Positions 4,003 to 60,927 are shown, counted from the stretch's first letter. The stretch: DNA of 64,000 nt from an uncultured Pseudomonadales bacterium (GCA_964598125.1 CAZRAG010000001.1:8810-72809); one strand, 5' to 3'. Notes: generated from the letters alone by a model not told the origin. Numbers and translations are program-made.

Positions 4003-4124
4003 AAGTTGAATATATCAATAAATTTCTTAATATGTGAAGTAAATTTTCATCAGCTTGTTGTAGTCATGAAGTCAGAATAAACAATTCCTCAAAGAATCAT
4101 GTCCACTAAATATGAATACCTCAA

Positions 4125-4355: not shown

Positions 4356-4510
4356 AGTACAATGCAAAATTTTCAATTGGATCAGTCAGAAATGCACAAA
4401 AAGGCAAAGGAATACCCGCTGCTTTTGAGGGTGAGCTTCCAAAAGGAAAATATGATATTCATTCTGAACTCAAAGTTCCCTAGGTGGTGGGAAATTTATG
4501 AGAGAGCAGC

Positions 4511-5284: not shown

Positions 5285-5339
5285 ATCAGTATGATAACAA
5301 AACAGAGACAAACAAAGAAATAATATAGGTAACCATGTT

Positions 5340-6125: not shown

Positions 6126-6252
6126 GAAACACATCCTGATTTCTTCCAATGCGGTAAGCAGTTTATCAGACCTCAAGTAATACATCCCACAACTTAATAC
6201 ACCGAAATAGAAGCTAGAACCTTGATGAGTTTTTGATATACTTTGAGGCATT

Positions 6253-6900: not shown

Positions 6901-6933
6901 TAATAAAAGCAATTCCTGATTTCCTCTACAACG

Positions 6934-6949
6934 GGGAGCATACGAAAAC
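6934..6949. repeat. att-core-like fragment (ggggagcatacgaaaa)
   Basis: Matches the tRNA 3'-end/core gggggagcatagaaaa at 463-478 and 4156-4171. It lies in the intergenic region between two convergent genes. Confidence 0.3.
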
Positions 6950-6991
6950 CACACCATCTCCTAAAAAATTCACGCACTTCCTAAGCCTCCC

Positions 6992-8860
6992 TTACCCCAC
7001 CAACCTCTCTCTAAAATACTCCCTCGTCTCTGCATCAGCAGAAAAAATTGAGCAGCTCTTCATACCTCGGCTCATCAATGTTCGATAGGTGTTTTTAATA
7101 AGCGTATCAGCACGTTTTTGTGCTGCCTCCGGGTCCTCCTCATACGCCTTCTTATAACCTTTCAACGACTTGTCGAACTGATCTCGAGCGCCAGGATTCG
7201 TAACAACCTCACCATCTCTGACTATCAAATCAGGGCCAATAATGACGCCTACATGTTGTAACTCCAAGCCTTGGGCCGTGTGAATACAGCCCACTTGATC
7301 GATCGATTCTGGATTAATAATCCAAGTACCACCATGTTTTGATAAGTTCCACTGCATTTGGAATCCATATTCAGGGAACTCAATATCATACTCATTCGGA
7401 TTGTTCTTTGACTTCCACCGCCAACAGTATCCGGCCAGCATTCGAGCCCGATTGTCTGGTTTATTTAAAGTCTCAATATGCTGCTTTAAAAGCATCGGAT
7501 CATCAAAAACACGAAAGTCATACTCGGATTTTTCAAGCCGAATATTGGCCGTTGGTGTTATGCCCAAAGTATTGTCCAACCATGCTAAGTAACCATCCGA
7601 ACCATTGCACCGAAACTGTGATTCCAGTTCAAAAGAGTGAACATCTGCTCCATACCACTTCGCCCACTTTTCAATCTCCGCGACCGAACCCATATCTTGC
7701 CAAGTGACTTGTTGTGATTCATCAATAAAGAACACGGACACCTTAGCGGCACTTATGATTTCCTTTACCTGATTCTTCCCAAAATTGCTAAAAAGACCAC
7801 TTTTCTCTACTAAGCGGTGGGCCTCATCCGTAATCAGGGCATCGTACTCATTATCTGCAGAAGAAATGAAAGAGCCTGAACCGGTAAAGAGAGTATTAAT
7901 CTCTGATTGTTTGTAGGAGTTAGTGAGCTTTGCTTCAAAAACTTTCCGGGGCGCACTATTTTTTGTTACGTAACGGACATTCTTGCGGTGATCAATAATG
8001 CCAGCAGCTAGCAGGTTAATGGCGACCACAGACTTTCCTGTTCCTGGGCCACCCCGAATAATTATGACTTGCTTGCGAGCATGCTTGTCTGCATCCCGAA
8101 TGGCGCGAGAAGCATACTCAAAAACAATTTTTTGAGAGTCTACGAGCATGAAGGCTTGGTTCCCTTGCAGCATATCAAGCAATTTATTCGCCAACTCTTC
8201 TGTTGGCTTGTAGTTTGATTCCGATAGTACACGCAAAATGTTACAAGAATCCGACACAATACCGGCAGATTCGAAATGCTTAATCAGCTTTTCTCGATCC
8301 TGTTTTACAAATAGGGGAGACTGGGACCAATAGTGTCGGTAAAAATCACACAAAAGTTCGTTATTGGATTCACAATTATGAAGGTAGGCACAGGTACGAA
8401 TATCAATATTATGTTGTGAAACACTTTCGTTGAAGTTGCGCAAAAGGTGCGCGTAGGACAAAGCTTTCTGGGAGGGATGATTTGTTTCAGTATACCCACC
8501 GCCAAGCCAAGTCCGCACGATTCCATCCATGTCCGTTCTCTCAACTCGCGCCCACTGCTTGAGCTCCACAATATACACCTTCTGTTCACCCATAGATGTT
8601 TCACCAGCAAGAATAAAATCGATGCGCTTCTTGGTAAAGGGAATACCAAATTCTATCGCAACCGTTGCATCATCATGAAGATCAGCACTATTAACTACAT
8701 GGTACATGGCATTACCAATTGAGTTCTGCCACGCTTTGTACTCAGAGGATTGAGGTTTAATATTTATGAGTAGTTTTTCGCGAACTTGCTGGCGGACAAT
8801 ATCTTGGATATCTGGGGCATCTTGAAGAAACTGCTTCTTCGTAGCCTGGTAAACAATCAT
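6992..8860 (-). CDS. DUF2075-family protein: N-terminal PD-(D/E)xK nuclease-like module plus SF1-like ATPase (Schlafen-like helicase domain)
   Basis: 622 aa. The N-terminus has ...RIDFIL...(13 aa)...IVELKQW, a D...ExK restriction-endonuclease-like signature. Walker A is IIRGGPGTGKSVV, Walker B is LITDEAHRL, and a UvrD_C-like motif is IHTAQGLELQHVGVIIG. The start overlaps the MazG-like stop as ATGA. Confidence 0.75.
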   Translation of the reverse strand: MIVYQATKKQFLQDAPDIQDIVRQQVREKLLINIKPQSSEYKAWQNSIGNAMYHVVNSADLHDDATVAIEFGIPFTKKRIDFILAGETSMGEQKVYIVELKQWARVERTDMDGIVRTWLGGGYTETNHPSQKALSYAHLLRNFNESVSQHNIDIRTCAYLHNCESNNELLCDFYRHYWSQSPLFVKQDREKLIKHFESAGIVSDSCNILRVLSESNYKPTEELANKLLDMLQGNQAFMLVDSQKIVFEYASRAIRDADKHARKQVIIIRGGPGTGKSVVAINLLAAGIIDHRKNVRYVTKNSAPRKVFEAKLTNSYKQSEINTLFTGSGSFISSADNEYDALITDEAHRLVEKSGLFSNFGKNQVKEIISAAKVSVFFIDESQQVTWQDMGSVAEIEKWAKWYGADVHSFELESQFRCNGSDGYLAWLDNTLGITPTANIRLEKSEYDFRVFDDPMLLKQHIETLNKPDNRARMLAGYCWRWKSKNNPNEYDIEFPEYGFQMQWNLSKHGGTWIINPESIDQVGCIHTAQGLELQHVGVIIGPDLIVRDGEVVTNPGARDQFDKSLKGYKKAYEEDPEAAQKRADTLIKNTYRTLMSRGMKSCSIFSADAETREYFRERLVG

Positions 8861-11811: not shown

Positions 11812-12438
11812 ATGAATAAATTTCTTGCTACAAGAGATATTTATAACAAATTCGCTTCCCAATTTGCCGACAAACTCGACAAAATTCCCGAAACAACCCA
11901 ACTCGATGAATTTATAGCAATGCTACCTCCTCAAGCCACGGTCCTTGATCTAGGTTGTGGAGCGGGGCGAGACTCAGAATACCTGCACCAAAAGGGATTG
12001 CAGGTTATTGCCGTCGATCTTTCCGAAAACCTCATCGCCGAGGCAAAAAAGAGAAGACCACAAATAGATTTTCGCGTGATGGATATGGAAAATCTGGATT
12101 TTCCTCGTGAGACCTTTGATGGCATCTGGTCAAAACTCACTATTATCCACGTTGCGAGAGAGACGCTTCCAATGATTCTCGCAGACATTTATAAACTCTT
12201 AAAACCTGGTGGTGTCTTGATGATTGAAACGAAAGCTGGGGAGGGGGAGGGCTTTGAGCCAGTGAGTTTCAAAAATGATGAGCAACGGTACTTTGTTTAC
12301 TATGAGTTAGAGGAACTTATTCAACTCTTTCGGGACGCTGGATTTGAGAATGTCCAAGGCTACGAATACTCCGTCAAGAACGAACATGCCACCAAGAAAA
12401 AGGAACGAGTCGTTGTGAGTGGTCAAAAAGCAGCCTGA
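11812..12438 (+). CDS. Class I SAM-dependent methyltransferase
   Basis: Motif I VLDLGCGAGRDSEYL, followed by an acidic motif II (VAVDLSE). Confidence 0.75.
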   Translation: MNKFLATRDIYNKFASQFADKLDKIPETTQLDEFIAMLPPQATVLDLGCGAGRDSEYLHQKGLQVIAVDLSENLIAEAKKRRPQIDFRVMDMENLDFPRETFDGIWSKLTIIHVARETLPMILADIYKLLKPGGVLMIETKAGEGEGFEPVSFKNDEQRYFVYYELEELIQLFRDAGFENVQGYEYSVKNEHATKKKERVVVSGQKAA

Positions 12439-12508
12439 GTTCCACCTCAGAACAACAAAAGCCTTTGCTCTCCTTGCGCCCTTCTTACTAACTGCTAAAA
12501 TCGTTGTC

Positions 12509-13522
12509 ATGTCCACCCATCCGGACTCGCAACCCGTTGCCCTTAAATCGTTAAACATAGCTATTTTGTACTCCGACGCTAAACGTGAGTATTTTCAAAC
12601 CGAAGAACACTACTTAACTGAGGCTGAGGTTTTTCACCGGGCCCAAACCATTGCTAAGCAACTCGAAAAAGATGGCCACCATTGTTTCTTACTCCCAGGC
12701 AATCAAGATCTCGCTGAAAATCTCAAAGAGTGCAAGCCAGACATGGCCCTGAACTTAGTTGATTCTGTGTATGGTAAAGAGTTCTTGAGTGGTTCTATAC
12801 CTGGACTTTTGGAACTTCTTCAAATTCCGTACACGGGTTCCGGAATCCTTGGACAATCCATTAACAGTAACAAATACTTAACCAAGTCACTCATGAGGCA
12901 ATATGGAATAACCACACCAAAATTCCAGTTGGTTACTTCGGCCAATGATGAAATTGATCACCTCCTTGATTATCCCCTGATTGCTAAACTCAATGAGGTC
13001 CACGGTTCTTTAGAAATAAGCCGAGATTCTATTTGTTTTGATGAAAAGTCGCTCAAACAGGTTCTGAAACGCTTGTTTGCTACCTATGATCAACCCGTTC
13101 TCATTGAGGAGTTTATTGCAGGCAAAGAAATCACGGCAATTGTGGCCGAAGGAGGAGTAACCAAAATCTATGCCGGTGAAAGGCATTTTCTCAAACGCTC
13201 AGCATCGCCTTTTGAACAGATTGCCGCCTATGAAGATGTTTGGAGTGATGAACAAACAGTGGGCTATGATAAGTACGAACTGCCACTGACCGTAAAGGAA
13301 ATGATCAAGCTCACCTACAGCATTCTTCGCTTGGAAGATTATGCCCGCTTTGATATGCGGCTCGATCAGTCTGGTAGGCACTATATTATTGATGCCAACA
13401 GCAACCCCGCTTTAGGGTTAAGAAATGACACCGCTATTGGCACTCTGCTTGATTTATATGGCATTTCAATCTCAACGTTTATGGAAAGGTTACTACGCAA
13501 CACGCTGTATCCCAATCAATAA
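12509..13522 (+). CDS. ATP-grasp domain protein, D-Ala-D-Ala ligase-like
   Basis: The ATP-grasp fold pattern runs from IAILYSDAKRE through PLIAKLNEVHGSLEIS to IEEFIAGKEITAIV. The listed ORF starts at 12419 with a 20-nt overlap on the methyltransferase; the ATG at 12509 is used here. Confidence 0.6.
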   Translation: MSTHPDSQPVALKSLNIAILYSDAKREYFQTEEHYLTEAEVFHRAQTIAKQLEKDGHHCFLLPGNQDLAENLKECKPDMALNLVDSVYGKEFLSGSIPGLLELLQIPYTGSGILGQSINSNKYLTKSLMRQYGITTPKFQLVTSANDEIDHLLDYPLIAKLNEVHGSLEISRDSICFDEKSLKQVLKRLFATYDQPVLIEEFIAGKEITAIVAEGGVTKIYAGERHFLKRSASPFEQIAAYEDVWSDEQTVGYDKYELPLTVKEMIKLTYSILRLEDYARFDMRLDQSGRHYIIDANSNPALGLRNDTAIGTLLDLYGISISTFMERLLRNTLYPNQ

Positions 13523-14253: not shown

Positions 14254-14463
14254 GAAAAAGTGACCAACTCAATCTTTCTATAACCACTTTCTCTTGGTTA
14301 GTAATCTAAACTTATAACACAACATAATATCCTATAACAATTGTTTTCTTCATATTTTCCTCTATAATATCCTTCTTGCCTCTTTGTCCTGACGACATTT
14401 GGGGCGATCCTGAACATCAGTACTACGTTTTTATTTTCCTTTGTGTCACTGGAGGCACACAAT

Positions 14464-15246
14464 ATGGCAAGAATCGAAAACCCGTACGTAGGAGACCTCC
14501 ATCGGGGTCTCGAATTGGCACATTTATTGTGCACCGCCGTTCAGCAACACGCATTTGTGACCATCCTAAAGGGAGGGCGCAGCTACTTCCTGTCTGTAGG
14601 CGGCTGGGCCGGTGATAACCCACCACTGGACTCGCGCGCACCTTATGCATCAGGGGCTAAGGCACTGGAACTCTTGTGGAAGGGAGCACCGCGTCCTGGA
14701 CAACTGCTCTGCACCCCAACCGATCTGAGCCTGAGCTTGGGCTGGAAGGGCGGAGTGCGAAATACGGACTATATCGTGGGCGTCTCCAAGTGGGCAGAGG
14801 AACACGATCTCCTGCTGGCCCTTATCGTCCTGTACGGACTCCAACAGGAGGTTCGCCTCCATCATGTTGGGTTCCGTTATGCGTCCATTGACGCCTACTT
14901 CGCGGCTTCCAAGCTCTTAGGTGCGGGCGTTGACGTGCCGGCCAAAGATCACCTCCGGAGATACCACCGTGTTGAATCAAGCTTGACGCCAAACGGGGAA
15001 TACTGGCAAGAAATCCAGTTCTTTCCCCAGGGGCCGCACACCAGGGCCGTCCATTGGGACATCGCTACCAGCGATCCCATTGGACTGCTGATGCACGTCG
15101 CCAACGCCTTTGGCACCCAACCGTCTTTCTTTGCCGATGCCGGGAAATACGATCCGGTCGGCGTGGTCTGGATTGAAGGCGGGGACGGAAAAATCATGGG
15201 TCTTATGACCCGAGACCGCTGGAGCGATCCGGCAACCTGGCAATAA
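14464..15246 (+). CDS. Hypothetical protein; high-GC orphan gene
   Basis: ATG at 14464 has SD ggagg 8 nt upstream; the listed ORF starts at an upstream GTG. GC is clearly above that of its surroundings. A candidate promoter (ttgttt-16-tataat) lies about 14340-14368. A terminator follows the gene. Confidence 0.5.
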   Translation: MARIENPYVGDLHRGLELAHLLCTAVQQHAFVTILKGGRSYFLSVGGWAGDNPPLDSRAPYASGAKALELLWKGAPRPGQLLCTPTDLSLSLGWKGGVRNTDYIVGVSKWAEEHDLLLALIVLYGLQQEVRLHHVGFRYASIDAYFAASKLLGAGVDVPAKDHLRRYHRVESSLTPNGEYWQEIQFFPQGPHTRAVHWDIATSDPIGLLMHVANAFGTQPSFFADAGKYDPVGVVWIEGGDGKIMGLMTRDRWSDPATWQ

Positions 15247-41409: not shown

Positions 41410-43239
41410 CTAGACCTGTAGCTTTTTAATCGCTGCATACTCTCGGACGATTCTAAGAAAGCCCACTGCCGACCAGAGCTGTAGCAAACTCATCTGTCCT
41501 TCGGCAGCTTCTTGATCCACATAAAACCTGGCTTTATCAAGATCTCGATCATAGTAATAGAGCTCGGGAATTGCTTCTAACTGCTCAAATCCCCGCAGGC
41601 TTGCCTCACAGTTAAGGGTAATACTCTGGTAGAGCGTATCCATTACTACTTCGGGCCACGAATATTTCATCCCTTTGCGATACTGCTTGGCCATACCTGC
41701 AATCGCAAAGGCAGCTTGTTTTGGCCAAATGACTTTTCCATGATAATGGCGTTCATCGAGATAAGGATTCTTTTGAGAAACAAGAATTGGTCCCACAGGA
41801 GTATAAAAATATTTTGGGGACATCATTCTTTTGGCAAAACTCACGACGTCTTCCAGTGATGGCTGCCCATAAAAAAGGGCGTAGCCTTCATCAATATGGG
41901 CAATTTTGAGTGTCCGTAGAGGATTGCCATGAAGTGCTAAAGCATATCCCTGAATGTGGAGGGGCTCAGTCAGGAGGTATTGATAGTGAACACTTGCCCA
42001 ACGTCGCATAATTTTTCGTAATTGTCGCGTTTGCGAGATATGCAACATTTCCCGGAAACGCCAGATCGTTCGTAAAGCTTCAGGATAAAAAACACAGTTC
42101 ACGTCATAGGGGGCTAAAGGTTGTTCATGTTGGTAAAAAGCGTCCTCACTGTCCCGCCAATTGCCGACTTTGTAGTAGGCCCCTGGCTCATTCTGAATCT
42201 CCTTGAAAGTAATATGCTCATTTTTTTCGGCTTTATTTATAAGGAATTCCGCCACAGCCTGGAATTTTTCCTGATTCGATTCGCGAAGAAGGAATTGTTT
42301 AGAAACGGTATTCAAGCTGAGAATATACAGTGGCTCAATATCCACCATCTTTCGATCCACCCATTCATCTTTTCCCACAAAATTTCGATACTCACCAATG
42401 ACTTCTTCATGCCATCCCTCACCTCCTTTGAGGTGTTTCATAGATTGCTCAACCATAAAATCTCGAGCAGCATGGGTAAGATCTTTTTCGCCAAGAAGGG
42501 CAGACTCAATCCAGTCACGAGGGAAGATAGTCCCAAACTCAAAACTACTCGTCCGGCTCGTGGAAACCAAGAAGTGAACTTGGCGACGCACTTCCTGCAC
42601 CATTCTCAGGATAGTTTCCGAAAATAAACCTGGGTCAAGCGCCAGTGGTTTATAGAGAATTTGTTCAATCTTTTCAGCAGACGGCACGGTTTTGGTATTA
42701 CTTTCGATCACGAACTCGACGGGTTGGGCATCATTATTGGTAATGGTAAGGGTATCGGCGGTCTGGGTGACCGTACAGTTTTGGGGAAAAATAACGTTTG
42801 CTCCATAGGTATTTTCTTCACCCTGAAAATCCCGATACGTTCGACTGAGGCGCAGCACTTTTCCTGACTGATATGGCAAAGTTAATGAATCCGAGTTTAT
42901 TTGCTCATACGAAACAAACTCTCGTACCTGCGGCAAGAGTTCAGCAATTTTTTGCGAGGCAAGTTCAAGATAACTGGGTTTATTGGCCGAACCCTCGGTG
43001 TATTTACGCAACGTCCGAATATTGCAGACAAGGGGCTGAGAAATGGTTACTTCGGGGGCTTCAAATTCCAGCGTGAGCTGAATGACATGTTCATCAAAAA
43101 TAACCGCTTCGCCAAAATTAACTTCTGACTGATGAAAAATAGAAAAGCCCAACAAAAGATGATTGTTTGGACCGGTTAAACGAAACTGATTCCGAGAATC
43201 AATGTCAAAATAGTAATCACTGAGAATCCCATACTTCAT
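41410..43239 (-). CDS. Hypothetical protein; possible (alpha/alpha)6-barrel glycoside hydrolase (GDE_C / GH63-like)
   Basis: ATG at 43239 (MKYGILSD...). C-terminal HGKVIWPKQAAFAIAGM and GQMSLLQLWSAVGFL resemble amylo-alpha-1,6-glucosidase-type barrels. Weak call. Confidence 0.45.
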   Translation of the reverse strand: MKYGILSDYYFDIDSRNQFRLTGPNNHLLLGFSIFHQSEVNFGEAVIFDEHVIQLTLEFEAPEVTISQPLVCNIRTLRKYTEGSANKPSYLELASQKIAELLPQVREFVSYEQINSDSLTLPYQSGKVLRLSRTYRDFQGEENTYGANVIFPQNCTVTQTADTLTITNNDAQPVEFVIESNTKTVPSAEKIEQILYKPLALDPGLFSETILRMVQEVRRQVHFLVSTSRTSSFEFGTIFPRDWIESALLGEKDLTHAARDFMVEQSMKHLKGGEGWHEEVIGEYRNFVGKDEWVDRKMVDIEPLYILSLNTVSKQFLLRESNQEKFQAVAEFLINKAEKNEHITFKEIQNEPGAYYKVGNWRDSEDAFYQHEQPLAPYDVNCVFYPEALRTIWRFREMLHISQTRQLRKIMRRWASVHYQYLLTEPLHIQGYALALHGNPLRTLKIAHIDEGYALFYGQPSLEDVVSFAKRMMSPKYFYTPVGPILVSQKNPYLDERHYHGKVIWPKQAAFAIAGMAKQYRKGMKYSWPEVVMDTLYQSITLNCEASLRGFEQLEAIPELYYYDRDLDKARFYVDQEAAEGQMSLLQLWSAVGFLRIVREYAAIKKLQV

Positions 43240-43452
43240 TTTTTTGTTTCTATTACGGGTAGGTAGTAAGTAAAACAGTTTGAAGTGTAGCCCTACTTTC
43301 CAATAATTAGAGGGAAAATTCGTAAAATTCTGGTAAGAATATGCCAGAAACTTGAATTTTGAGCATTTAAAGTGGCACATTCCTGTTCTTACACCGTTCT
43401 TAAAAACAACCAGTAGGGTAGTGTCTATTCAAAAAGAAAGGATGATTCTGCT

Positions 43453-44319
43453 ATGAAGCAATTCCTCTTTACGCCACTGGTGGTGGCTCTGGTAGGAGCG
43501 GCCGTCTTTGCCGTCAGCCAACCAGTGCTCGCCTCGGTGGCCCCCGTTTGGGATCAAGGATTCGAAGAGTCGACAGATGGTTGGCTTGACTCCAGTGATG
43601 CCTGGTATGGCGAGATTACTCGAGTTCCTTCTGGTACTGATGGTATCGTCGCCTCTAGAGGTGACTGGTTTGCCTTGGTGGAAGGTGATAGTGATTCCGG
43701 ACCATTTTCTCGTTTTGATGGCTATCGCGATGAGTGGCCAGGAGAATGGGTGTCGGAAATCGATGTGTATCTGGACCCAAGTTGGGCTGCTGGCACAGGG
43801 TTTGATTACTCGGTATCAGCTAACGGAACCGACAATAATCACCAACGAGACTTCATTTTCCATGTAACCAAGGATACCTCGACAAACGAACTTTTGGTGG
43901 GTGGTTCGAATAACTCCAACTTTGCGGTTCGTGAAGACCTCGAAAACATCAATCACTACGTCGTCACTTCTGCTGGGTGGTACACCTTACAACACGTTTT
44001 TCGAGATGATGGGGGAACTTTAGCCGTCGATCTCCGACTGCTCGATGATGAAGGTAATGTTCTGTTCACGGAGACAAGAAATGATCCCACTGATCTTATC
44101 CCTTCTGAAGTTGGTGGTAATCGCTATTCATGGTTCACCTTCATTACCGTGGATGGTCTCCCGATAGATGAGCACCAACTCCTCATGGATGTTCCGGATA
44201 AGAATGACATGCTTCTCGAGAGTGGCGTTCCAGGAAGAGGTATTGAGAATGCTCCTGGATTGCAAAAACCATTTAACCCCAAATCGCAAGCGGCTGAGCA
44301 TGCTGGCAAGAAAAAGTAA
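43453..44319 (+). CDS. Secreted hypothetical protein
   Basis: Signal peptide MKQFLFTPLVVALVGAAVFAVSQPVLA. 288 aa. Confidence 0.5.
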   Translation: MKQFLFTPLVVALVGAAVFAVSQPVLASVAPVWDQGFEESTDGWLDSSDAWYGEITRVPSGTDGIVASRGDWFALVEGDSDSGPFSRFDGYRDEWPGEWVSEIDVYLDPSWAAGTGFDYSVSANGTDNNHQRDFIFHVTKDTSTNELLVGGSNNSNFAVREDLENINHYVVTSAGWYTLQHVFRDDGGTLAVDLRLLDDEGNVLFTETRNDPTDLIPSEVGGNRYSWFTFITVDGLPIDEHQLLMDVPDKNDMLLESGVPGRGIENAPGLQKPFNPKSQAAEHAGKKK

Positions 44320-44345
44320 GTTATTTTACTAAAGCTCTTTAAAAG

Positions 44346-44372
44346 GTGCCTCCAAACGGGGGCACTTTTTTT
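44346..44372 (+). terminator. Intrinsic terminator
   Basis: ggtgcc-tccaaacgg-gggcac followed by ttttttt. Confidence 0.6.
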
Positions 44373-44454: not shown

Positions 44455-44586
44455 ATGTGTGATTCACCCCGTTGCAAAGGCCCCGACACGGAAAAATTGC
44501 AACCGCGTTGTGGAGGACGAGTCAAGTGGTTTTGCGAGAAATGCGCAAAAATAATGAAGGCCAGAGGTTGGGTGAAGTGCCGATAG
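44455..44586 (+). CDS. Small zinc-ribbon-like protein (43 aa, four CxxC-type Cys pairs); absent from the ORF track
   Basis: SD aaggag lies 11 nt upstream. Translation is MCDSPRCKGPDTEKLQPRCGGRVKWFCEKCAKIMKARGWVKCR. Terminators flank it on both sides. Confidence 0.45.
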   Translation: MCDSPRCKGPDTEKLQPRCGGRVKWFCEKCAKIMKARGWVKCR

Positions 44587-44635: not shown

Positions 44636-44672
44636 CCCCAGTCGGGTAACCGGCTGGGGATTTCTTTTTTTT
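44636..44672 (+). terminator. Intrinsic terminator
   Basis: ccccagtcgg-gtaa-ccggctgggg followed by atttctttttttt. It is preceded by a second hairpin (gctgaac-cct-gttcagc). Confidence 0.6.
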
Positions 44673-44916
44673 AAACACACCCCGCATCAATTTAGATGTA
44701 TCAGTTAGAAAACTTCGAGAGACCTCTCTCGCCATTTCTTCTGTTTCCAACTGTACTTGCTTAAATAGCAGGAAAATATCGCTTTCTCTTTTCTCTATCA
44801 TATCCTATAATACTAGACTTGTTCTCAAAAACATTGATATCTACGTCTTTTGCTTTTTGAGAGCAGCTCGTGAACATGTTAACGATTTTATTTTTCGAAT
44901 GCACAGGAGGTGTATT

Positions 44917-45327
44917 TTGCTTATACGCGCGATTCAGTTCGCGGCGGCTCATCAGCGATTTTTGCTGTTTGCCGTTATCGGAGGATACGTCACCCTGCAA
45001 GGGGCGGCTATCCTGTGGTTATTAGTCGAGGCCGAATTACGGCCTGAAATCGCCAACATAGGTCAAATGATTGTAAGCATCGAAACAAATTTCTTTGCCA
45101 ACAACTGGCTGACCTGGCGTGACCGGCGTGAGCGCTCGCTGTGGGACCGCTACAAACGATTCCACTTTGCCAAGATAGGAACAGTGGTGCTCAACAGCCT
45201 GCTGTTCGCCGCCCTGATCTGGCTAAAGATTCCCTACATGTTGGTGTACATCATCAACGTGGGAGTCTTTACCGCGATCAACTTCCTGGTAAATGAAAAG
45301 TTTGTGTTCAAAAAGGAAGGTGCGTGA
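44917..45327 (+). CDS. GtrA-family small membrane protein (polyprenyl-P-sugar flippase-like)
   Basis: Four TM helices, GtrA-like. The listed ORF starts at 44857; TTG at 44917 has an aggagg SD 6 nt upstream. High GC. The stop overlaps the next start as ATGA. Confidence 0.6.
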   Translation: MLIRAIQFAAAHQRFLLFAVIGGYVTLQGAAILWLLVEAELRPEIANIGQMIVSIETNFFANNWLTWRDRRERSLWDRYKRFHFAKIGTVVLNSLLFAALIWLKIPYMLVYIINVGVFTAINFLVNEKFVFKKEGA

Positions 45328-46418
45328 TGATTATGCCGACGAAAGTGTCGGTGATCGTCCCTCTCAGAAACTCTGGCGCCCATATTACTGGGTTGCTGGA
45401 TTCTCTCCTTTCCCAAGATTACCCCAGCTTCGAAATACTGTTGGTAGGTAATCAGGGCGATACAACCTGGTCGGCTCTGCCAAGTGACTTGGACCCACGG
45501 GTTCACATCATAGAGGTTGAGCTACCCGAAGGTTGGATGGGCCGCGACTCCAATTTCAAACGGAATCGCGGTGCCGAAGCCGCAACGGGCATCGTCCTGT
45601 TTTACACGGACGTCAAAATCCGCCACCAACCAGACTGGATCAGTACCGGTCTGCGCTTGATGCGCGAAAACCAGGTTGAGGCAGTTGCCGGCATCATGCT
45701 CGGCACAGCGGAATCGACTCAGAGTTTTTTGGGTCGCTTCACTGATAGCGCCCTCATCCGGCGCAATCCAGATTTTGGACAAGGTTACATCCTGAATGCC
45801 CAGAATTTTGGTAATCGGGAAAGTCTCCCCATCACCGCCTGCTGGGCGATGACGCGAGCCGCCTATGAAAACATGGGTGGCTTCGACGAAGACGCTCGTG
45901 ACTCATATGAAGACTACATGAGTGCGTGGAGAGCTGTCCGGGCTGGAGTCGAGTTCTTCGTCAGTAATCTCTGGACGGTTTTCCATAAGCACCGATCGAA
46001 ATTCAAACCAATGCAGCTGGAGTACGCCCGGTCTGCCCGTGGCGCAGCCCAGATGTTCGCCACCTATCCAGATTGCCCGTTCGGCCGCCGGCGTGCCGCT
46101 CAAGTCACCATTGTTCTCGCCATGGTGTTTGTTGGCGTGGTGACACTACTCATATCTCTCGTAGCCTTGGCGTTGGGAAACTGGCAGATCCTCGCTGGAT
46201 TATCAGCAATCGTCACAGCACTGTACGTGCTCGCTGGCACTGCCAATACGGTCAAGGCCCATCACTGGCAGGGATTTTTCTTCCCAGCCTTGACTGGCTG
46301 GTTTATTCTCTGGTTCGCCCTGCATTTTGCGCAGAAATTGCGCGAAGGTGGAGGAGTATCCAAAAACAATAGGTGGTTGCAAACAATGTTCTCTTTAGTC
46401 CTTCCGGGGGTGAAGTAA
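45324..46418 (+). CDS. GT2-family glycosyltransferase with C-terminal TM helices (GtrB-like polyprenyl-phosphate sugar synthase)
   Basis: N-terminus VSVIVPLRNSGAHITGLLDSLLSQDYPSFEILLVG in a GT-A fold, with 2-3 C-terminal TM helices. Confidence 0.75.
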   Translation: MMIMPTKVSVIVPLRNSGAHITGLLDSLLSQDYPSFEILLVGNQGDTTWSALPSDLDPRVHIIEVELPEGWMGRDSNFKRNRGAEAATGIVLFYTDVKIRHQPDWISTGLRLMRENQVEAVAGIMLGTAESTQSFLGRFTDSALIRRNPDFGQGYILNAQNFGNRESLPITACWAMTRAAYENMGGFDEDARDSYEDYMSAWRAVRAGVEFFVSNLWTVFHKHRSKFKPMQLEYARSARGAAQMFATYPDCPFGRRRAAQVTIVLAMVFVGVVTLLISLVALALGNWQILAGLSAIVTALYVLAGTANTVKAHHWQGFFFPALTGWFILWFALHFAQKLREGGGVSKNNRWLQTMFSLVLPGVK

Positions 46419-46420
46419 CC

Positions 46421-47839
46421 ATGAAAACAAAAACGGCCATGACCATCCTGGTCATTGTTTTGCTGGCTGCAGGCCTGCGGCTAGCATTTATGGGCGTAAC
46501 TCCGTGGGACTGGGATGAACCGGTATATACGCGGATCGCCAACAATGTTCAGTCCATGGGTCATCCCAGTCTGGATATTGGCGGGGAAGAGGAATGGTAT
46601 ACCTACCATCCCCCCTTCCATTTCTGGCTTTTGTCCGGGTGGTACGCCCTCATCGGCGATGATACCATCTGGGCGGGGCGCTTGTTCAGCAGCCTAGCTG
46701 CCACAATTTGTGTAGTTTTGTTGATGGTTCTGGTCTGGGAAATCAGTCAGGACAAGCAACTCACCCTTTTTGCCGGATTTCTTTTTGCAACGGATGGCTG
46801 GTTTGGCTACACGAGCTTGCTCGTGAAACTGGACACCACCGCGGTTGCGATTGGGATCGCCGGCCTTATCCTGTTCGTGCAGGCGCTCAAAACCCCAAAA
46901 ACCGGCCTATTTATAGCGACCGGTTTAGTTATTGGGATAGCAACAATCTACAAGCACGTTGCGGCTGTTTTTCTCCTGACGATCGCCATTCATTGGCTGA
47001 TCACAAAGGGAAATCGCAGACAACATCTCATCGTCCTCGCTGCCGCGGGCTTCGTTATCGTCCTGTACATCCTAGGTATGGCGATTTTTGTGGGTGAACC
47101 TTTTACCCACGCTACCGTTGTTCAGGTCCGCAGAACGCTCGGACAGCAAGAGGCTCGTGGTCTGCAGTATGGCCTGGTCGAAACGCTCCAAGCGATGTTC
47201 AATACCTACTGGGCATTCAGTGGCACCGTACTTGTTCTATTCATCGGAGGCATCATATCCATATGGATGGGCAGACTCCACTGGCAGGGAGAGGAACACT
47301 GGCTAGCAGTCATCACCGCTTGGGCGCTCGCCGCCCTCTTGATGCTCGGCGGGATCAAGCTACGAAATCCGCATTACCTCGTGTATGCAATTCCACCCGC
47401 AACCGTGCTCGTAGCTGAGTTTTTGCTTGGCCTGATTGAACAGCGTCGCAACAAACTGGCTGGCCGCTTGCTGGCTGTGCTGCTTGTGATGAGCTTTAGT
47501 ACCTTCAGCATCCGTGCAACACGTTTTTCACCCACCAATGCACTGGGAGAGCTCCAATACCAAATGGATCAACTCCCTGCGGACGTGACTGTACTCTCTG
47601 AGGAAAGCATCTGCGCTCTGATCGATCAGCCCTGTTATCCCTTCGGGCACTACCAGACTGCCGGACAGATCGCCTCTATCCCTGGAGGAAAACCGCAATA
47701 TGTGGTCGTGTACACCACGACCACGCAAAAGCCACCCCAAACTGAGGCGGTGTTGGAGCTTATCTCAGAAGGTCAGGTTATCTACTCCATCTCTGGGTGG
47801 AAAGAAACCTTGACCATCATCCAGGTCGAGAGTCCATGA
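46421..47839 (+). CDS. GT83/GT39-like (ArnT/PMT-type) polyprenyl-phosphate-sugar-dependent glycosyltransferase
   Basis: N-terminus MKTKTAMTILVIVLLAAGLRLAFMG...WDEPVY. 10 or more TM helices, ArnT/PMT_2-like. Confidence 0.7.
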   Translation: MKTKTAMTILVIVLLAAGLRLAFMGVTPWDWDEPVYTRIANNVQSMGHPSLDIGGEEEWYTYHPPFHFWLLSGWYALIGDDTIWAGRLFSSLAATICVVLLMVLVWEISQDKQLTLFAGFLFATDGWFGYTSLLVKLDTTAVAIGIAGLILFVQALKTPKTGLFIATGLVIGIATIYKHVAAVFLLTIAIHWLITKGNRRQHLIVLAAAGFVIVLYILGMAIFVGEPFTHATVVQVRRTLGQQEARGLQYGLVETLQAMFNTYWAFSGTVLVLFIGGIISIWMGRLHWQGEEHWLAVITAWALAALLMLGGIKLRNPHYLVYAIPPATVLVAEFLLGLIEQRRNKLAGRLLAVLLVMSFSTFSIRATRFSPTNALGELQYQMDQLPADVTVLSEESICALIDQPCYPFGHYQTAGQIASIPGGKPQYVVVYTTTTQKPPQTEAVLELISEGQVIYSISGWKETLTIIQVESP

Positions 47840-48026
47840 CCTGGTCGTTAACATGTTTGACAATTCGGGGGGTGTGGTTAGCAATAACTGCATCTCCCGT
47901 TTTCTTTTTTTGTAAGAAATTTGTAAATAAAGTGTGACTTTTTTTCGGGAAAAGGTGAAGTCCCTGGGAGGGACTTTCGGTATGAGCCAAGGGCTTTCGC
48001 CCAAGGCATGTTTTCCGACCACACGA

Positions 48027-48299
48027 TTAGCTTGCGCTGGACGCGGCGTCCAACTTCCAATCGGCGGTCAGCCATTTGCTCAAGCCACGCAAGGCGAGCA
48101 CAATCAAGGCCAAACCGAAAACGGCGGGTACAACAGCAAGCGGCCCATGCGACGCGCACAGCGCCGACAGACCGAGTATGATCACACCAGCCGCCGAAAA
48201 AAGGGTATCGCTTGCGACTTCGCCGACCCACTTGAGCCGACGAACCAATACTGCTGCGACCAACAAGATCACAACCAGTGCGACAAGAAAAAGCTCCAT
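48027..48299 (-). CDS. Small membrane protein
   Basis: ATG at 48299 with SD ggagg about 10 nt upstream. Two to three TM helices. High GC. Confidence 0.4.
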   Translation of the reverse strand: MELFLVALVVILLVAAVLVRRLKWVGEVASDTLFSAAGVIILGLSALCASHGPLAVVPAVFGLALIVLALRGLSKWLTADWKLDAASSAS

Positions 48300-48408
48300 G
48301 GTATTTCTACCTCCGCTTTCCATCTAACCCTCCCAGGCTTCCCCTATATTATACGCTATAGGATCAAAAAATAGCTTGATTTACACAAGAAAAGAGTAAG
48401 AGGAGGGC

Positions 48409-51400
48409 CTATAAGCTGGCTGAGTCCGTGGCAACAGGAGTCTCAATACTTGCCTCAGACGTGGCTACGCTCTCCTGCGCCAACACAATTGACGTTGGCT
48501 CAGGTTGGATTATGGGACTGGGAGTAGGGGAGTTATTGAGGATAATCACCGGGTCTGGACTGTCTGATTGAATCGCAGCTGGGACAATGACCGGTGTGTC
48601 TCCAACAGACGTGTTCGGAGTATCAACCTGTAAAGCGATCCAAGAAAAGCGGGTTCTTTGGGTAGCTGGACCGTTCAAAACAATGCGGAAACTGTTGGGG
48701 GTGACGTCAGTTATTACAAAGCGTTGGCCACTAGAAAAGACAGCGTCTATAGAATCTTCACTCGTTAACATTTGGCTGACATTTACAATAGGCGCAACAG
48801 AGTAAGGACGATCAAAGGTCACCACTACTTCTTGGGCGGCTGGTTGAATGATAGCTAAGCCAGCAGTTTCGGTGGAAAATTCAGGAGCACGTCGAAAACG
48901 AGCAACACCGGCAAACACCACCTCCTTAGAAAAGGTAACGAGCTGCTCAAACTGAGCCTGTCCAACCGCAAGAAATTTCCCCAGTGATTGCAGTGTTTGC
49001 TTCACGGCAAAATTATCAGTTTCATCCGGAAAAACAACCGCCTGGCTTTCTGGTTCAACCGCGGCTGCTTGCTCCAAAGCAGCCACATCCGCAGTGAGAA
49101 GGTTCATCTTAAGGTAAAGACCCTGCACACCAGCCAAGGCAATCCCCGAGGGATCAATGGTTGAAATTGAGGTGTTATTATTCCCCAAACCAAAAATGGT
49201 ATAAAAATCTTGAGCCATTGGTCCAAAGTGGCGAACATTTTGGTCAACTTCCGTCTTAAAACTCCACTCTACTAAAGGAAGCGCGGCAATTTTATCTAAA
49301 ATAAGGTCGTTATCTAAATCGATAAAATTCGTTTTCAAGTTACGGTCAGAGGCGTTTGTCCAATCACCTCCAGCGGTAACATAGGCACCGCTGGCCATGT
49401 GAAGAGGACCCAAAGTTGGTGCTATACCGATCCCCATTTTCCCTGTTGAATCAATGGTTACGGCTGTACCTTGGCCAAAAGAGGAGTTATTTACATTGAA
49501 TTTAATACTTTTACTATTGCCGCCTTGAATGACAGCAGCTGATCCATCATACCCAACCATCATTCGAGTGCTCTGAAAATCAATATATCCAGTAGAGTTA
49601 GCGCCTGAACCAAATTTTCCTGAGAGACCATCAAAAGCAACATGGAACCGCGCCAAAGGATCTGTCGTTCCAATACCTACTTCGCCGGTAGTTGCTTTGG
49701 GCATAACAATAACATTACCGGTTGCCCCGCCCCCCAAAGTCAGATCACCATCACCACTAGTTTGTACACTGGAAGCAGCACTAAATGTTAAGGCCCCACT
49801 TGAAGTAATATTCCCAACAGACACAATATGTCCGCTACTATCTACTTGGAACTGAGAGGTTTCGCCAACACTAAAAAGAGAAGTGGGCGTAACGGTGCCG
49901 ATTCCAACGAGTCCTGTCGGCATGATAGTGACAGCCGTTCCTTGACCATAAGAAGAATTACCAACATTGAGCTTCACCCCTTTACTTGGACCTCCCTGTA
50001 AAACAGCGTAAGAACCATCATACCCAACCATGGCGCGATTACTCTGAAAATTCAGAAAAGAGCGAACGTTTGTTCCTCCCCCAAAAAAAGCCGTTTCATC
50101 ATCACCATAGACCCGCAAAGTACCTGTCCCGGCATTCACGGCAAATGATTCTGTTGTCGTGCCATCTCCTTTATGGATAACAAAACGACGCTGACCACTA
50201 GTATCCGTTTCTCGCAGCCAACGAACGGTCACATCCTTGGTTGCGTCGATGGTTTTGGCATCCAGAGACATCACCGTCATGTCGTTTGTACCTAGCTCAG
50301 TAACCCATTGGCCAATGTTGTAGCTTGCCGTTTTGGCAGCATTCGTCATGTTATGCACCATCTGAATTCGGTCGCCATAATTGTTGTGAACACCATACGT
50401 ATCTACGTTGCTGTAAAGAACATGAGCCAAGTCACGGTTATAGTCGATGGCATACCGAGTAAGCATGACACCTGGTTGGCTGCCGTTAGGATCGGCAGCT
50501 GTTTTCAATTCCCACCGATTGTGAGTATCACCATCGGTGTAGTTCACTCCATGAATGCCAAAGGCCGCCACATGTCGTCCTGTAGAATCAAGGCTGCTGA
50601 TCCAGGGACGATCATACTGACTCGTGGCTTGAAGGATAATAAGCCGAGAGATACTTCCCGTAGTCGGCGTATTCGCTTTGAGTTTGATACCATAGTTTGT
50701 GCTCACTCGAAGATCTCCATTCACTTCCAGGGTTGAAGTTGGATTACTCGTGTTGATACCCACTTTGCCATTACTCACTACGAGCTGATTGGAACCTACC
50801 TGCAAACCATTGGATGGTAGCGATAGTGAACCGGTAGCGGAAAACCAGGCTAAAGCATTACCTGAATTACTCTGTAATTGCAAAAGAGAACTGGAAGATT
50901 GATTGCTTGCTCCCCGAATTACCAGTTGTTTCTCATCAGTGTCACCCAAAATAGTGACTTTCCCCAGTGTTGATCCATTACCAATAACAACATCTGAGGT
51001 TGGAGTGCTAAGGCTCACTGAGTTTGTCAAAGAATTCCAACCATTCAGTGTGGCAGAAGTAATGGTATTTTCAATGGTGATGACATCCTCATCTGCGTTG
51101 AGAGAAAGGTTAATACCATTGCCAGCCTTGAAAGTAAGTGTATCGTTGTTTTGATCTGCACCCAGCGTTTCTGAGTCATTGACTTTTATAGTTTTAAAAA
51201 TTGACTGGCTGGAACCAAGGTCAGAATTTTTGATAATCCCATCTTGCAAAAAAAGACCATCACTTGCCGTCAAACTTAATACTCCCGTATTGCTGATAAA
51301 GTTTCCCGAAATCGCAATGCCTTTACCAGCTTGCCAGATTTCACTTGGTGGATCTGATGGGGGAATGAGTTCTGCAAAAATCGACTGAAGATCACTTGCT

Positions 51401-51660
51401 GTGAATGAGCTCAGCATGATCTCTTTGAACTCCTCATTGCTGAGTCGTAGAGGACTTATAGAACGAGTTGCATTGTCAAAAGCAGGACCATTGCCCAAAA
51501 TTTTTGAAACCGAAGAAAGCGGTTTATCAAACCAACTTGCCACAACAATTTGATCAGGAGAAATCAGTCCATACTTGGCCAAAACGAGCGAGGAGCTAGT
51601 CATGGAAACAACTGCAGAAGTAAACACCAACCACCACCAACGACGCAACGACTTCCACAT
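48409..51660 (-). CDS. Large secreted tail-fibre-like / adhesin protein with a peptidase S74 (intramolecular chaperone auto-processing) domain
   Basis: 1083 aa with a signal peptide. Internal ~70-aa repeats are present. ASDRNLKTNFIDLDNDLILDKIAALPLVEWSFK...GPMAQDF at aa ~770-865 (nt ~49066-49368) matches the endosialidase/tail-spike chaperone domain, with the predicted autocleavage Ser in the SDRNLK motif. Confidence 0.7.
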   Translation of the reverse strand: MWKSLRRWWWLVFTSAVVSMTSSSLVLAKYGLISPDQIVVASWFDKPLSSVSKILGNGPAFDNATRSISPLRLSNEEFKEIMLSSFTASDLQSIFAELIPPSDPPSEIWQAGKGIAISGNFISNTGVLSLTASDGLFLQDGIIKNSDLGSSQSIFKTIKVNDSETLGADQNNDTLTFKAGNGINLSLNADEDVITIENTITSATLNGWNSLTNSVSLSTPTSDVVIGNGSTLGKVTILGDTDEKQLVIRGASNQSSSSLLQLQSNSGNALAWFSATGSLSLPSNGLQVGSNQLVVSNGKVGINTSNPTSTLEVNGDLRVSTNYGIKLKANTPTTGSISRLIILQATSQYDRPWISSLDSTGRHVAAFGIHGVNYTDGDTHNRWELKTAADPNGSQPGVMLTRYAIDYNRDLAHVLYSNVDTYGVHNNYGDRIQMVHNMTNAAKTASYNIGQWVTELGTNDMTVMSLDAKTIDATKDVTVRWLRETDTSGQRRFVIHKGDGTTTESFAVNAGTGTLRVYGDDETAFFGGGTNVRSFLNFQSNRAMVGYDGSYAVLQGGPSKGVKLNVGNSSYGQGTAVTIMPTGLVGIGTVTPTSLFSVGETSQFQVDSSGHIVSVGNITSSGALTFSAASSVQTSGDGDLTLGGGATGNVIVMPKATTGEVGIGTTDPLARFHVAFDGLSGKFGSGANSTGYIDFQSTRMMVGYDGSAAVIQGGNSKSIKFNVNNSSFGQGTAVTIDSTGKMGIGIAPTLGPLHMASGAYVTAGGDWTNASDRNLKTNFIDLDNDLILDKIAALPLVEWSFKTEVDQNVRHFGPMAQDFYTIFGLGNNNTSISTIDPSGIALAGVQGLYLKMNLLTADVAALEQAAAVEPESQAVVFPDETDNFAVKQTLQSLGKFLAVGQAQFEQLVTFSKEVVFAGVARFRRAPEFSTETAGLAIIQPAAQEVVVTFDRPYSVAPIVNVSQMLTSEDSIDAVFSSGQRFVITDVTPNSFRIVLNGPATQRTRFSWIALQVDTPNTSVGDTPVIVPAAIQSDSPDPVIILNNSPTPSPIIQPEPTSIVLAQESVATSEASIETPVATDSASL

Positions 51661-59736: not shown

Positions 59737-60927
59737 ATGCGCTTTCCCAATTCTCATCGCTGGCAACAGTTATCTCTTCCTACACTGAGCAACTTACCGT
59801 ATCGCACCCTTCTTATGGCGACACTTGGTTTGATTACCGGATTATTTCTATTGCTTGGAATGTTTCTCTGGAAAACCATGCACACTATTCTCGTGAGTAA
59901 TTCTCCTCTTACCTTAAGTGCAACCCAGAGTGCTTCTCTGGAAGAGAACGAGCCATCTGACTTCAGCATTCTCCTCCTTGGCTATGGAGGCAATGGTCAC
60001 GCTGGAGGACTGCTCACCGATACAATGATTGTTGCTCACATTCAACCGGAAAAAGAAAGTATCACCCTCATCACTTTACCCCGAGATTTATGGGTTCATT
60101 TCCCAAGCAGCCAGAATGGTGAAACGGGCTGGAAAATCAACGCGGCGTACCAGATTGGTTCCGACGACGCTTCTTATCCTCATAAGCCAACCCAGTTTAC
60201 TGGCGAAAGTGGGGGAGGGGCCCTTGCCAAGTATGCTGTCCAAAAGGTGGTCGGGTTTCCCATTGATTCTTTTGTCGCAGTGAGTTTTCTTGGTTTTACG
60301 GAAACGGTTGACGTGCTTGGCGGCTTGGATGTCCAAGTGGAGAAAACCTTTGACGACTTCTGGTATCCCATTGAAGGTGAAGAGGAGAATACATGTGGCC
60401 GTAGTACTGAAGATATTGCTACTCTTTCGGCAACTCTCTCAGGTTACCTCTTGGAACAACAATTCCCTTGTCGTTATGAGACCCTTCACTTTGACCGTGG
60501 CCTCGTCTCGATGGATGGTGAGACTGCATTAAAATATGCTCGTTCCCGACATTCCTCGCAGGACGGCAGCGATTTTGCCCGCTCTCAAAGGCAAAAACAA
60601 GTTCTCTTAGCAGCGAGAAAAAAGGCCCTTTCATTAAATCTTATTTCCAAGTTTTTCCCTCTGGTAAATTCCTTAGGCCAAAATATTCGCACAGACCTTT
60701 CGCTCGAAGATCTCCAGAATTTCGTCGCAAAAAAGGATACCTACAGCCAATACACCATTAAGAGTATTTCTCTCACTGATAAAAATGTCCTTGTACATGG
60801 TCGTAGCTCTAATGGTCAATACATCCTTAATCCTCGAGGGGGAGAAGAAAATTGGAGCGAAATTCATGCCTGGATCCAGGAGCAACTCGATAATCCCCAG
60901 GCTACCACAGCCGCTGAGCTGGAGTAA
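59737..60927 (+). CDS. LCP-family (LytR-CpsA-Psr) cell-envelope phosphotransferase
   Basis: TM anchor followed by LLLGYGGNGHAGGLLTDTMIVAHIQPEKESITLITLPRDLWV, an LCP signature. Confidence 0.75.
   Translation: MRFPNSHRWQQLSLPTLSNLPYRTLLMATLGLITGLFLLLGMFLWKTMHTILVSNSPLTLSATQSASLEENEPSDFSILLLGYGGNGHAGGLLTDTMIVAHIQPEKESITLITLPRDLWVHFPSSQNGETGWKINAAYQIGSDDASYPHKPTQFTGESGGGALAKYAVQKVVGFPIDSFVAVSFLGFTETVDVLGGLDVQVEKTFDDFWYPIEGEEENTCGRSTEDIATLSATLSGYLLEQQFPCRYETLHFDRGLVSMDGETALKYARSRHSSQDGSDFARSQRQKQVLLAARKKALSLNLISKFFPLVNSLGQNIRTDLSLEDLQNFVAKKDTYSQYTIKSISLTDKNVLVHGRSSNGQYILNPRGGEENWSEIHAWIQEQLDNPQATTAAELE

Follow-up and report, generated by a model that had tools for sequence, protein, structure and literature searches.

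What does a compact block of GC-rich membrane-protein genes do for an uncultured bacterium, and is it a recent arrival or an old possession? The block, hereafter the cassette, occupies positions 44917-47839 of a 64,000-nucleotide (nt) stretch from an uncultured Pseudomonadales bacterium (GCA_964598125.1 CAZRAG010000001.1:8810-72809; "the window" below is this whole stretch) and encodes a GtrA-family protein, a membrane glycosyltransferase of family 2 (GT2) and a glycosyltransferase of the GT-C fold. A previous sequence-only reading had interpreted it as a horizontally acquired, phage gtrABC-like set of a GtrA flippase, a GtrB-like GT2 and an ArnT-like GT83 enzyme. Our best explanation overall, which we hold tentatively, is a vertically inherited five-gene surface module for extracytoplasmic glycosylation that is linked to a secreted fibre protein. 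With considerably more confidence, we regard GtrA, GT2 and GT-C as one physical machine for extracytoplasmic glycosylation, for which we infer a lipid carrier and a sugar.

The operon and its three components

The three open reading frames (ORFs) had been recognized correctly: all lie on the plus strand in one tightly packed operon. The GtrA-family protein (136 amino acids, TTG start; PF04138, E 4.6e-19) is encoded at 44917-45327, the GT2 (363 amino acids; PF00535, E 7e-11) at 45327-46418, and the GT-C-fold enzyme (472 amino acids, ATG start at 46421; PF13231, E 3.7e-15; PF02366, E 5.8e-8) at 46421-47839; gene calls on public contigs give these same three proteins with identical starts. The junctions are indeed tight but differ in detail from those first described: the GtrA stop codon TGA (45325-45327) and the GT2 ATG have A 45327 in common, making a 1-nt overlap (GTGATG) instead of ATGA, and only the letters CC separate the GT2 stop codon TAA (46416-46418) from the GT-C ATG, a spacer of 2 nt instead of 3 bp. 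An alternative GTG start for GT2 at 45324 would extend the overlap with GtrA to 4 nt. A putative ribosome-binding site, read from the sequence as AGGAGG (44904-44909), lies 7 nt 5' of the GtrA start codon in an AT-rich upstream region (44660-44916, plus strand; GC 0.345). Terminator-like hairpins are found on both sides of the operon: at 44341-44370 and, bordering the AT-rich region, 44636-44659 on the 5' side, and at 47866-47899 on the 3' side, where a 15-pair stem precedes the T-run TTTTCTTTTT (47866-47909 in all, plus strand). This last element, identified by consensus scan only, putatively ends the operon.

The GtrA-family protein has four transmembrane segments and matches PF04138 over profile positions 2-117 of 117, making it a putative flippase for lipid-linked sugar or a partner subunit of the GT2.

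The GT2 is the unexpected member of the set. Transmembrane helices make up the hydrophobic C-terminal third of the protein, and the predicted model (predicted local distance difference test score, pLDDT, 90.3) combines a GT-A catalytic domain with an interface helix and three long transmembrane helices, pointing to a cellulose-synthase-like minimal membrane fold. In a fold search, the model was closest to HAS, PcManGT and BcsA, transmembrane helices included; sequence searches of the PDB were uninformative, with PcManGT marginal at E 0.5. The best NCBIfam match was to MftF (E 1.4e-21, below the MftF cut-off), an enzyme that builds beta-1,4-glucan chains, and none of the 11 NCBIfam matches was to a model named for a polyprenyl-phosphate glycosyltransferase. 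Residues invariant in the homologue alignment include D45, T94-D95, S193-Y-E-D196, H220/H222-R223 and R235-S236, a pattern that, judged by its motifs, belongs to the cellulose-synthase/GT21 branch: an ED motif and an R-S-x-x-G-A motif occupy the positions of TED and QxxRW, and the canonical QxxRW is not present. Membership of the GtrB/ArnC/DPMS subfamily, whose members have a GT-A core, juxtamembrane helices and two (GtrB, ArnC) or four (DPMS) C-terminal transmembrane helices, was considered and rejected. The description of this enzyme as GtrB-like must be abandoned, as fold comparison places it outside that subfamily and no NCBIfam match to the class was found. Gandini et al. reportedly found in 2020 that PcManGT is non-processive and dolichyl-phosphate-dependent, its three helices forming half of the cellulose-synthase tunnel. 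Because this fold-mate has those properties, a lipid-phosphate acceptor is, by analogy, the most economical reading for the GT2 of the cassette.

The third protein belongs to the GT-C superfamily but not to a recognizable branch within it. An alignment-based AlphaFold model (pLDDT 87.7) has the GT-C fold and a small C-terminal extracytoplasmic alpha/beta domain. Scores against PF02366 (33.0 bits; cut-off 22.7) and PF13231 (56.9 bits; cut-off 26.1) exceed the thresholds; PMT_2 is a broad Pfam model that also covers non-PMT enzymes. Foldseek matched the model about equally well to AglB, PglB, STT3, ArnT, ALG9 and ALG12 (template-modelling score ~0.6, probability 1.0). ArnT was among the best fold matches (0.62/0.56), and solved PMT structures ranked below oligosaccharyltransferases (OSTs), ArnT and the ALG enzymes. 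Across 17 GT-C homologues, W31-D32-E33 is invariant within a conserved WDWDEP motif that opens the first outer loop, which is the usual site of the catalytic acidic pair in GT-C enzymes; a Cys pair in the C-terminal alpha/beta domain (C398/C405) is likewise invariant. A profile search of 1.84 billion representatives recovered 130 clusters that match end to end at E<=1e-30, which marks out a separate, delimited family of modest size. The only NCBIfam match was to TIGR03663 (29 bits against a cut-off of 126), and a profile search of the PDB returned none. The GT83 label cannot be kept: there was no ArnT-family match, and the fold likeness to ArnT is generic for GT-C enzymes, being no better than that to OST, ALG9 or ALG12. 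An ArnT identity was thus ruled out by NCBIfam, PDB profile and fold searches, and no arn genes occur among the neighbours of the cassette.

That the three proteins act together is best seen in relatives in which they are fused. GtrA is joined to the N-terminus of GT2 in P0034/L019 and P0039, GT2 to GT-C in P0141, P0125 and P0148, and GtrA to GT-C in P0178; full GtrA-GT2-GT-C polypeptides of 1023-1081 amino acids are found in P0170, P0181, P0192 and P0176, with a 1544-amino-acid form in P0144. The GT2 domain of P0170 aligns with the window GT2 through the transmembrane region (34% identity, E 2e-38), motifs kept. At a Saccharibacteria locus (L015; OY969928.1, 7297-9939), an 880-amino-acid ORF comprising GtrA and two GT2 domains is followed by GT-C. 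Furthermore, the identity matrices of GT2 and GT-C are strongly correlated across seven lineages (r = 0.91, Mantel p = 0.001). Anaerolineae have the GT2-GT-C pair without GtrA, and a Wzx-type Polysacc_synt gene comes next; such interchange of GtrA-type and Wzx-type flippases has been described for Gram-positive systems (PMC8035078). The three-component logic is itself established (PMC11127046; PMC8035078), and all characterised GT-C enzymes take polyprenyl-(P)P-linked donors (PMC11127046). The earlier proposal of a flippase, a GT2 and a GT-C working in sequence is therefore supported by the families and folds present, the operon, co-variation and single-polypeptide fusions, with a new kind of first enzyme.

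From the folds, motifs, operon structure, fusions, co-evolution and synteny observed directly, we infer that a sugar is attached to a lipid carrier, flipped across the membrane and passed to an acceptor. On the cytoplasmic face, the GT2 would use a nucleotide sugar to load a sugar or short glycan onto polyprenyl phosphate held in its three-helix "half tunnel." GtrA, packed against the GT2, would move the lipid-linked sugar to the outer face, where the GT-C would hand it, via the WDWDEP loop, to an acceptor outside the membrane.

The wider module and its fibre

The conserved unit is larger than the operon. It consists of five genes, two of which were missing from the sequence-only reading: downstream of the cassette and on the opposite strand lie a small transmembrane ORF and a gene for a fibre. 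The small ORF (48027-48323, minus strand) encodes 98 amino acids, or probably 90 from an ATG at 48299 that follows GGAGGT, and translation and hydropathy indicate 2-3 transmembrane segments; it has no Pfam or PHROG match. A small transmembrane ORF of 61-110 amino acids takes the equivalent position in L004, L008, L018, L019, L020, L022 and L009, with no obvious sequence similarity between lineages as judged by eye from the translations. Next to it, the minus-strand gene at 48409-51660 encodes a secreted tail-fibre-like protein of 1083 amino acids with a signal-peptide-like N-terminus, a Ser/Thr/Gly/Asn-rich body and a strongly conserved central domain.

The arrangement, with the cassette facing the small ORF and the fibre gene, was verified in seven contexts (the window plus L004, L008, L018, L019, L020 and L022). 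The six contexts beyond the window have GT-C proteins 39-53% identical to that of the window and otherwise unrelated flanks, and four more cassette-fibre pairings were inferred from contigs of matching length. Over most of its length the fibre is homologous to the neighbour gene of all related modules (39-58% identity by alignment; 40-65% on ungapped columns). Searched for from the fibre side, the fibre family has 11 members in 5.8 billion clusters, 10 of them on cassette-bearing contigs, and a fibre-side scan of JGI metagenomes yielded a single locus, which duplicates L018. The identity matrix of the fibre is correlated with those of the cassette (r ~0.5, Mantel p<0.01), the two being congruent at the level of sister pairs. 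Together, these data suggest that the linkage between cassette and fibre is almost obligate.

Several features of the fibre bear on its possible role. A Peptidase_S74 intramolecular-chaperone domain (residues 771-823; 49192-49350, minus strand) matches PF13884 at 46.6 bits (E 4.3e-12; cut-off 22; E 8.5e-13 for the fragment) and includes a Ser/Lys motif read from the sequence as S771-D-R-N-L-K776. This domain is not terminal: ~260 residues follow it, comprising a linker that appears by eye to be coiled coil, an H-type lectin-like domain and a Pro/Ser/Thr-rich tail. The lectin-like domain (residues ~946-1009; 48634-48825, minus strand) matches PF09458 over profile positions 3-66 of 67 at 16.9 bits (E 0.007), short of the 24-bit cut-off, which is exceeded in four orthologues (L018, 28.6 bits; L020, 25.5; P0077, 29.1; P0080, 27.4). 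The tail (residues ~1025-1083; 48412-48588, minus strand) recurs in each of the six orthologues that were aligned. Over the final 83 residues of the window fibre, the fraction of Ser plus Thr is 0.25 and that of Pro 0.13. Ser and Thr account for 21% of the whole protein, and matches to PHROG tail-fibre families are weak. In two orthologues (L008, 9968-13135; L019, 10060-13080) there is no Pfam Peptidase_S74 match and the region of the S-D-x-x-x-K motif is replaced, so autocleavage may have been lost there.

The surroundings of the module are cellular, with genes for KsgA, a GT4 glycosyltransferase, a DEAD-box helicase, a flavodoxin, HflX, CorA and an LCP ligase. Directly 5' of the cassette, between two terminator-like hairpins, sits a small Cys-rich ORF (44455-44585, plus strand), MCDSPRCKGPDTEKLQPRCGGRVKWFCEKCAKIMKARGWVKCR, which is zinc-ribbon-like with CxxxxC...C...CxxC spacing. 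Also just 5' of the cassette are an ORF of 288 amino acids with a hydrophobic, signal-like N-terminal segment (43453-44319, plus strand) and one of 656 amino acids (41410-43380, minus strand); neither has a Pfam or PHROG match or belongs to the module, and neither is conserved beyond contigs of the same organism. In two lineages, additional 240-amino-acid GT2 genes with no window equivalent flank the module (L008, 5470-6192; L019, 5495-6217 and 13288-14013) and, like it, have elevated GC at third codon positions (GC3, 0.52-0.63).

Age of the cassette and competing explanations

The cassette was described from the outset as distinctly GC-rich, and quantification bears this out for GC, GC3, tetranucleotides and codon usage alike. 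Its GC content is 0.530 versus 0.436 for the whole window, and the excess lies nearly all at third codon positions: GC3 is 0.650, 0.608 and 0.599 for GtrA, GT2 and GT-C versus 0.400 (sd 0.066) for 47 other window ORFs (z = 3.0-3.8), and first and second positions are ordinary. Among 123 window segments of 2.9 kb, the cassette ranks first in tetranucleotide deviance, and synonymous usage is shifted toward ATC (0.63 vs 0.25), TAC (0.70 vs 0.41) and TTC (0.53 vs 0.25). The GC-rich block had been drawn as extending to 48.4 kb; it is GC-rich, but the stretch past the cassette (48.0-48.3 kb) is a fourth gene, the small minus-strand membrane ORF, with a GC3 of 0.626. The fibre gene, at 0.398, is host-like. 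High GC3 as a general trait of membrane or envelope genes was ruled out, since the genes in the window for a major facilitator superfamily transporter (0.46), CorA (0.41), GT4 (0.38) and LCP (0.44) are ordinary. Two other parts of the window are compositionally unusual. An ORF of 267 amino acids (14443-15246, plus strand; GC 0.575, GC3 0.634) without a Pfam match has the most deviant synonymous codon usage of all window genes of at least 200 codons, above the cassette genes. A low-GC block (1-7000; GC 0.30-0.39) that adjoins a tRNA-Asn gene (397-469) is the second most deviant tetranucleotide region and may be an island or defence region; an ORF with a Schlafen-group-3 helicase domain comes after it (6992-8860, minus strand; PF09848, E 2e-97).

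The GC3 excess is not peculiar to the window. Cassette values were 0.62, 0.62 and 0.69 against flanks of ~0.40 in L004, 0.60 and 0.62 against ~0.40 in L008, 0.38-0.47 against 0.24-0.35 in L018, 0.53-0.56 against 0.24-0.35 in L019 (one 68-amino-acid flanking ORF, 0.44) and 0.58-0.69 against 0.42-0.56 in L020. The Woesebacteria copy (L009; 0.49-0.60 against 0.29-0.47, with two flanking ORFs at 0.50) and the Saccharibacteria copy (L015; 0.63-0.76 against 0.35-0.46, with an adjacent GT2 ORF at 0.58) follow suit. In every low-GC context, cassette and small ORF exceed the flanks in GC3, and the fibre gene is host-like or lower. Since at least seven lineages, whose GT-C proteins are only 39-53% identical, keep both the excess and the position, a recent, un-ameliorated import is not credible, and because synonymous sites are saturated at 40-60% amino-acid identity, such an import cannot account for the excess. 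Our data suggest that the window copy is old and vertically inherited, and that its GC3 excess is a long-standing trait that the cassette has conserved. O-antigen clusters of enterobacteria have persistently atypical GC, of which this excess would be a mirror image.

Deeper in the history of the family, ancient transfer between phyla is likely. In neighbour-joining trees, which carry no support values and are read for coarse grouping only, one clade unites the copies linked to a fibre with the Woesebacteria copy and two from Anaerolineae, and copies from Saccharibacteria, Baekduia and Desulfobacterales form another, the L015 GT-C grouping with that of high-GC Baekduia (Actinomycetota). The Anaerolineae copies, which come from GC-richer hosts and at 0.61-0.63 have a GC3 similar to that of the cassette, are sister to or nested in the window clade, which makes such an ancient transfer plausible. 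The nearest named genome is a Candidatus Woesebacteria (42% identity), and the uncultivated lineages that bear the module are probably Patescibacteria-like.

As for the acceptor, the cassette probably decorates either the fibre or a surface sugar to which the fibre binds. The co-conserved secreted fibre is a possible candidate, though we stop short of calling it probable by itself: during export it would receive O-linked glycans on the Ser/Thr-rich body or on the Pro/Ser/Thr tail, much as in actinobacterial protein O-mannosylation. We favor it because cassette and fibre are almost always linked and because this secreted, Ser/Thr-rich protein ends in a conserved tail. A number of points weigh against this acceptor or against the wider explanation. 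The tail and the lectin-like domain both lie C-terminal to the S74 autocleavage motif and so may be cleaved off the mature fibre, and the lectin-like domain would fit an anchoring or ligand role equally well. One fibre homologue (L023) lies on a 19.6-kb contig without a cassette; a PMT_2 gene near it was considered as a cassette GT-C and rejected, not being a member of the window GT-C family. Next to the cassette homologues of Anaerolineae, Woesebacteria (L009) and Saccharibacteria (L015), the annotated genes are different ones and no fibre is among them; nor did a BLAST search with the fibre detect a homologue in L009, L012, L015 or L017. The fibre therefore cannot be the acceptor in every case. 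The activity, sugar and carrier of the cassette are deduced from sequence and models, the GT2 stands outside the subfamily that makes polyprenyl-phosphate sugars in all three-component systems characterised so far and has processive synthases among its nearest folds, and the taxonomic placement runs through the 42%-identity Woesebacteria match. Alternatively, the cassette may glycosylate an envelope component (a wall glycopolymer, lipoglycan or membrane lipid), with the fibre lectin binding the product and thereby anchoring the fibre or masking self. We consider this rather unlikely, yet it accounts for the H-type lectin, which passes the Pfam cut-off in four orthologues and spans nearly the whole profile in the window fibre, and for the occurrence of the cassette without the fibre in other phyla. 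Characterised Gram-positive multi-component systems decorate lipoteichoic acid (LTA), wall teichoic acid (WTA) and secondary cell wall polysaccharide (SCWP), not proteins (PMC8035078), and lectin-like adhesin domains that bind cell-wall sugars have been reported for Saccharibacteria pili (PMC11623550). The window also contains an LCP-family (LytR_cpsA_psr) wall-polymer ligase gene (59737-60927, plus strand) and a D-Ala-D-Ala-ligase-like gene (12419-13522, plus strand); as far as sequence goes, these imply a Gram-positive-type wall with glycopolymers, which are possible alternative acceptors. Set against this, cleavage at the S74 motif, which precedes the lectin, may release it, the seven contexts have no conserved genes that are candidates for an acceptor polymer, and a conserved Pro/Ser/Thr-rich tail is a typical O-glycosylation substrate.

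The remaining alternatives concern the first enzyme and the origin of the cassette, and we give them less weight. The GT2 could be a processive synthase whose channel is completed by the four helices of GtrA, the pair polymerizing and exporting a short glycan that the GT-C modifies or ligates. Its HAS/BcsA-like fold, the MftF match, the motifs at the TED and QxxRW positions and the existence of GtrA-GT2 fusions are consistent with this proposal, but there is no canonical QxxRW and the GT-C partner needs a lipid-linked donor, which a synthase of free polymer would not supply, and we judge it improbable. More improbable still is a recently acquired, mobile, phage gtrABC-like island in which a GtrB-type synthase makes undecaprenyl-phosphate glucose and an ArnT-like GT83 brings about serotype conversion. 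The strongly atypical GC3 and tetranucleotides would fit an island, as would the GC-richer Anaerolineae as nearest relatives outside the clade and the grouping of the Saccharibacteria copy with Baekduia, a hint that genes of this family do pass between phyla. However, a search for repeats flanking the cassette found only chance matches of 14-25 nt, with no direct repeats of an island; no integrase or transposase was found near it, and the only tRNA gene in the window is that at 397-469, not adjacent. Neither the GT-C and fibre profiles, run against viral contigs, nor a tblastn search of 50,697 phage genomes with the GT-C recovered relatives, and PHROGs gave no match for the neighbours of the fibre. 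At least seven lineages have the module in an unchanged position and with its GC3 excess, and the excess extends to the Woesebacteria and Saccharibacteria copies. Moreover, the GT2 does not resemble GtrB, and the GT-C cannot be assigned to ArnT. The "recent" and "phage-like" origin proposed for the cassette is thus largely refuted. Returning to the vertically inherited surface module, its most integrated version is speculative, and we rate it as doubtful: an "all-in-one" machine in which GtrA completes the half tunnel of the GT2 and lipid-linked sugar passes directly to a docked GT-C. In an ultrasmall, probably episymbiotic clade, this machine would be dedicated to a lectin-tipped attachment fibre derived from a tail fibre, and the codon composition of the cassette would long have been held apart by a gene-specific force.

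Comparison with known systems

Among known proteins, the window fibre resembles phage tail fibres and tailspikes with Peptidase_S74 domains (endosialidase, T5 pb1), with which it shares the S74 Ser/Lys motif and weak PHROG tail-fibre matches. It differs in being encoded on a cellular chromosome amid housekeeping genes, with a signal-peptide-like N-terminus and ~260 residues after the S74 domain, and in two orthologues (L008, L019) the S74 motif has been lost. Surface glycosylation in this group of uncultivated bacteria has been described as unexplored (PMC11623550), and the linkage to the cassette makes the fibre a concrete candidate for a dedicated glycoprotein or glycan-anchored adhesin. The comparison across lineages carries a more general lesson: as the GC3 excess is kept across deeply diverged lineages, atypical composition alone is no evidence of recent transfer.

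Of protein glycosylation systems, actinobacterial O-mannosylation (Ppm1 plus Pmt, GT39) offers a close likeness. The window GT-C similarly exceeds the PMT and PMT_2 cut-offs and has D-E in its first outer loop, a secreted Ser/Thr/Pro-rich protein is encoded adjacent to the cassette, and NCBI labels the Anaerolineae GT-C homologues "glycosyltransferase family 39." However, solved PMTs are weaker fold matches than OST, ArnT or ALG enzymes, and the window GT2 is not Ppm1/DPMS-like. Its fold-mate PcManGT (Pyrobaculum calidifontis) differs in being archaeal, in acting in N-glycan assembly and in having no reported GtrA or GT-C partner. The three-step logic is also that of the ArnC/ArnE-F/ArnT system (GT83), which adds aminoarabinose to lipid A and whose ArnT is among the best fold matches of the GT-C.

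The Gtr systems for O-antigen glucosylation in Shigella and Salmonella phages (GtrA/GtrB/Gtr*) have the same three parts in one operon and in the same order (PMC11127046). The same logic, in which a GtrA- or Wzx-type protein flips a lipid-linked sugar made inside and a GT-C transfers it on the outer side, operates in CsbB/GtcA/YfhO, GtlA/GtcA/GtlB and the Csd pairs of Lactococcus, and the replacement of GtrA by Wzx in the Anaerolineae relatives matches these Gram-positive systems (PMC8035078). They differ in their CsbB/GtrB-like GT-A enzymes, their YfhO-like GT-C enzymes and their acceptors, which are teichoic acids or wall polysaccharides. Literature searches turned up no fully fused GtrA-GT2-GT-C polypeptide; the natural fusions described here show that one physical machine can combine all three steps, and with them the long-debated question of whether GtrA is a flippase or an accessory subunit could be tested on a single polypeptide. 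To our knowledge, every characterised three-component system uses a GtrB/CsbB/ArnC-type synthase. In the cassette, the synthase slot appears to be filled by a minimal cellulose-synthase-like GT2, which is new for three-component systems.

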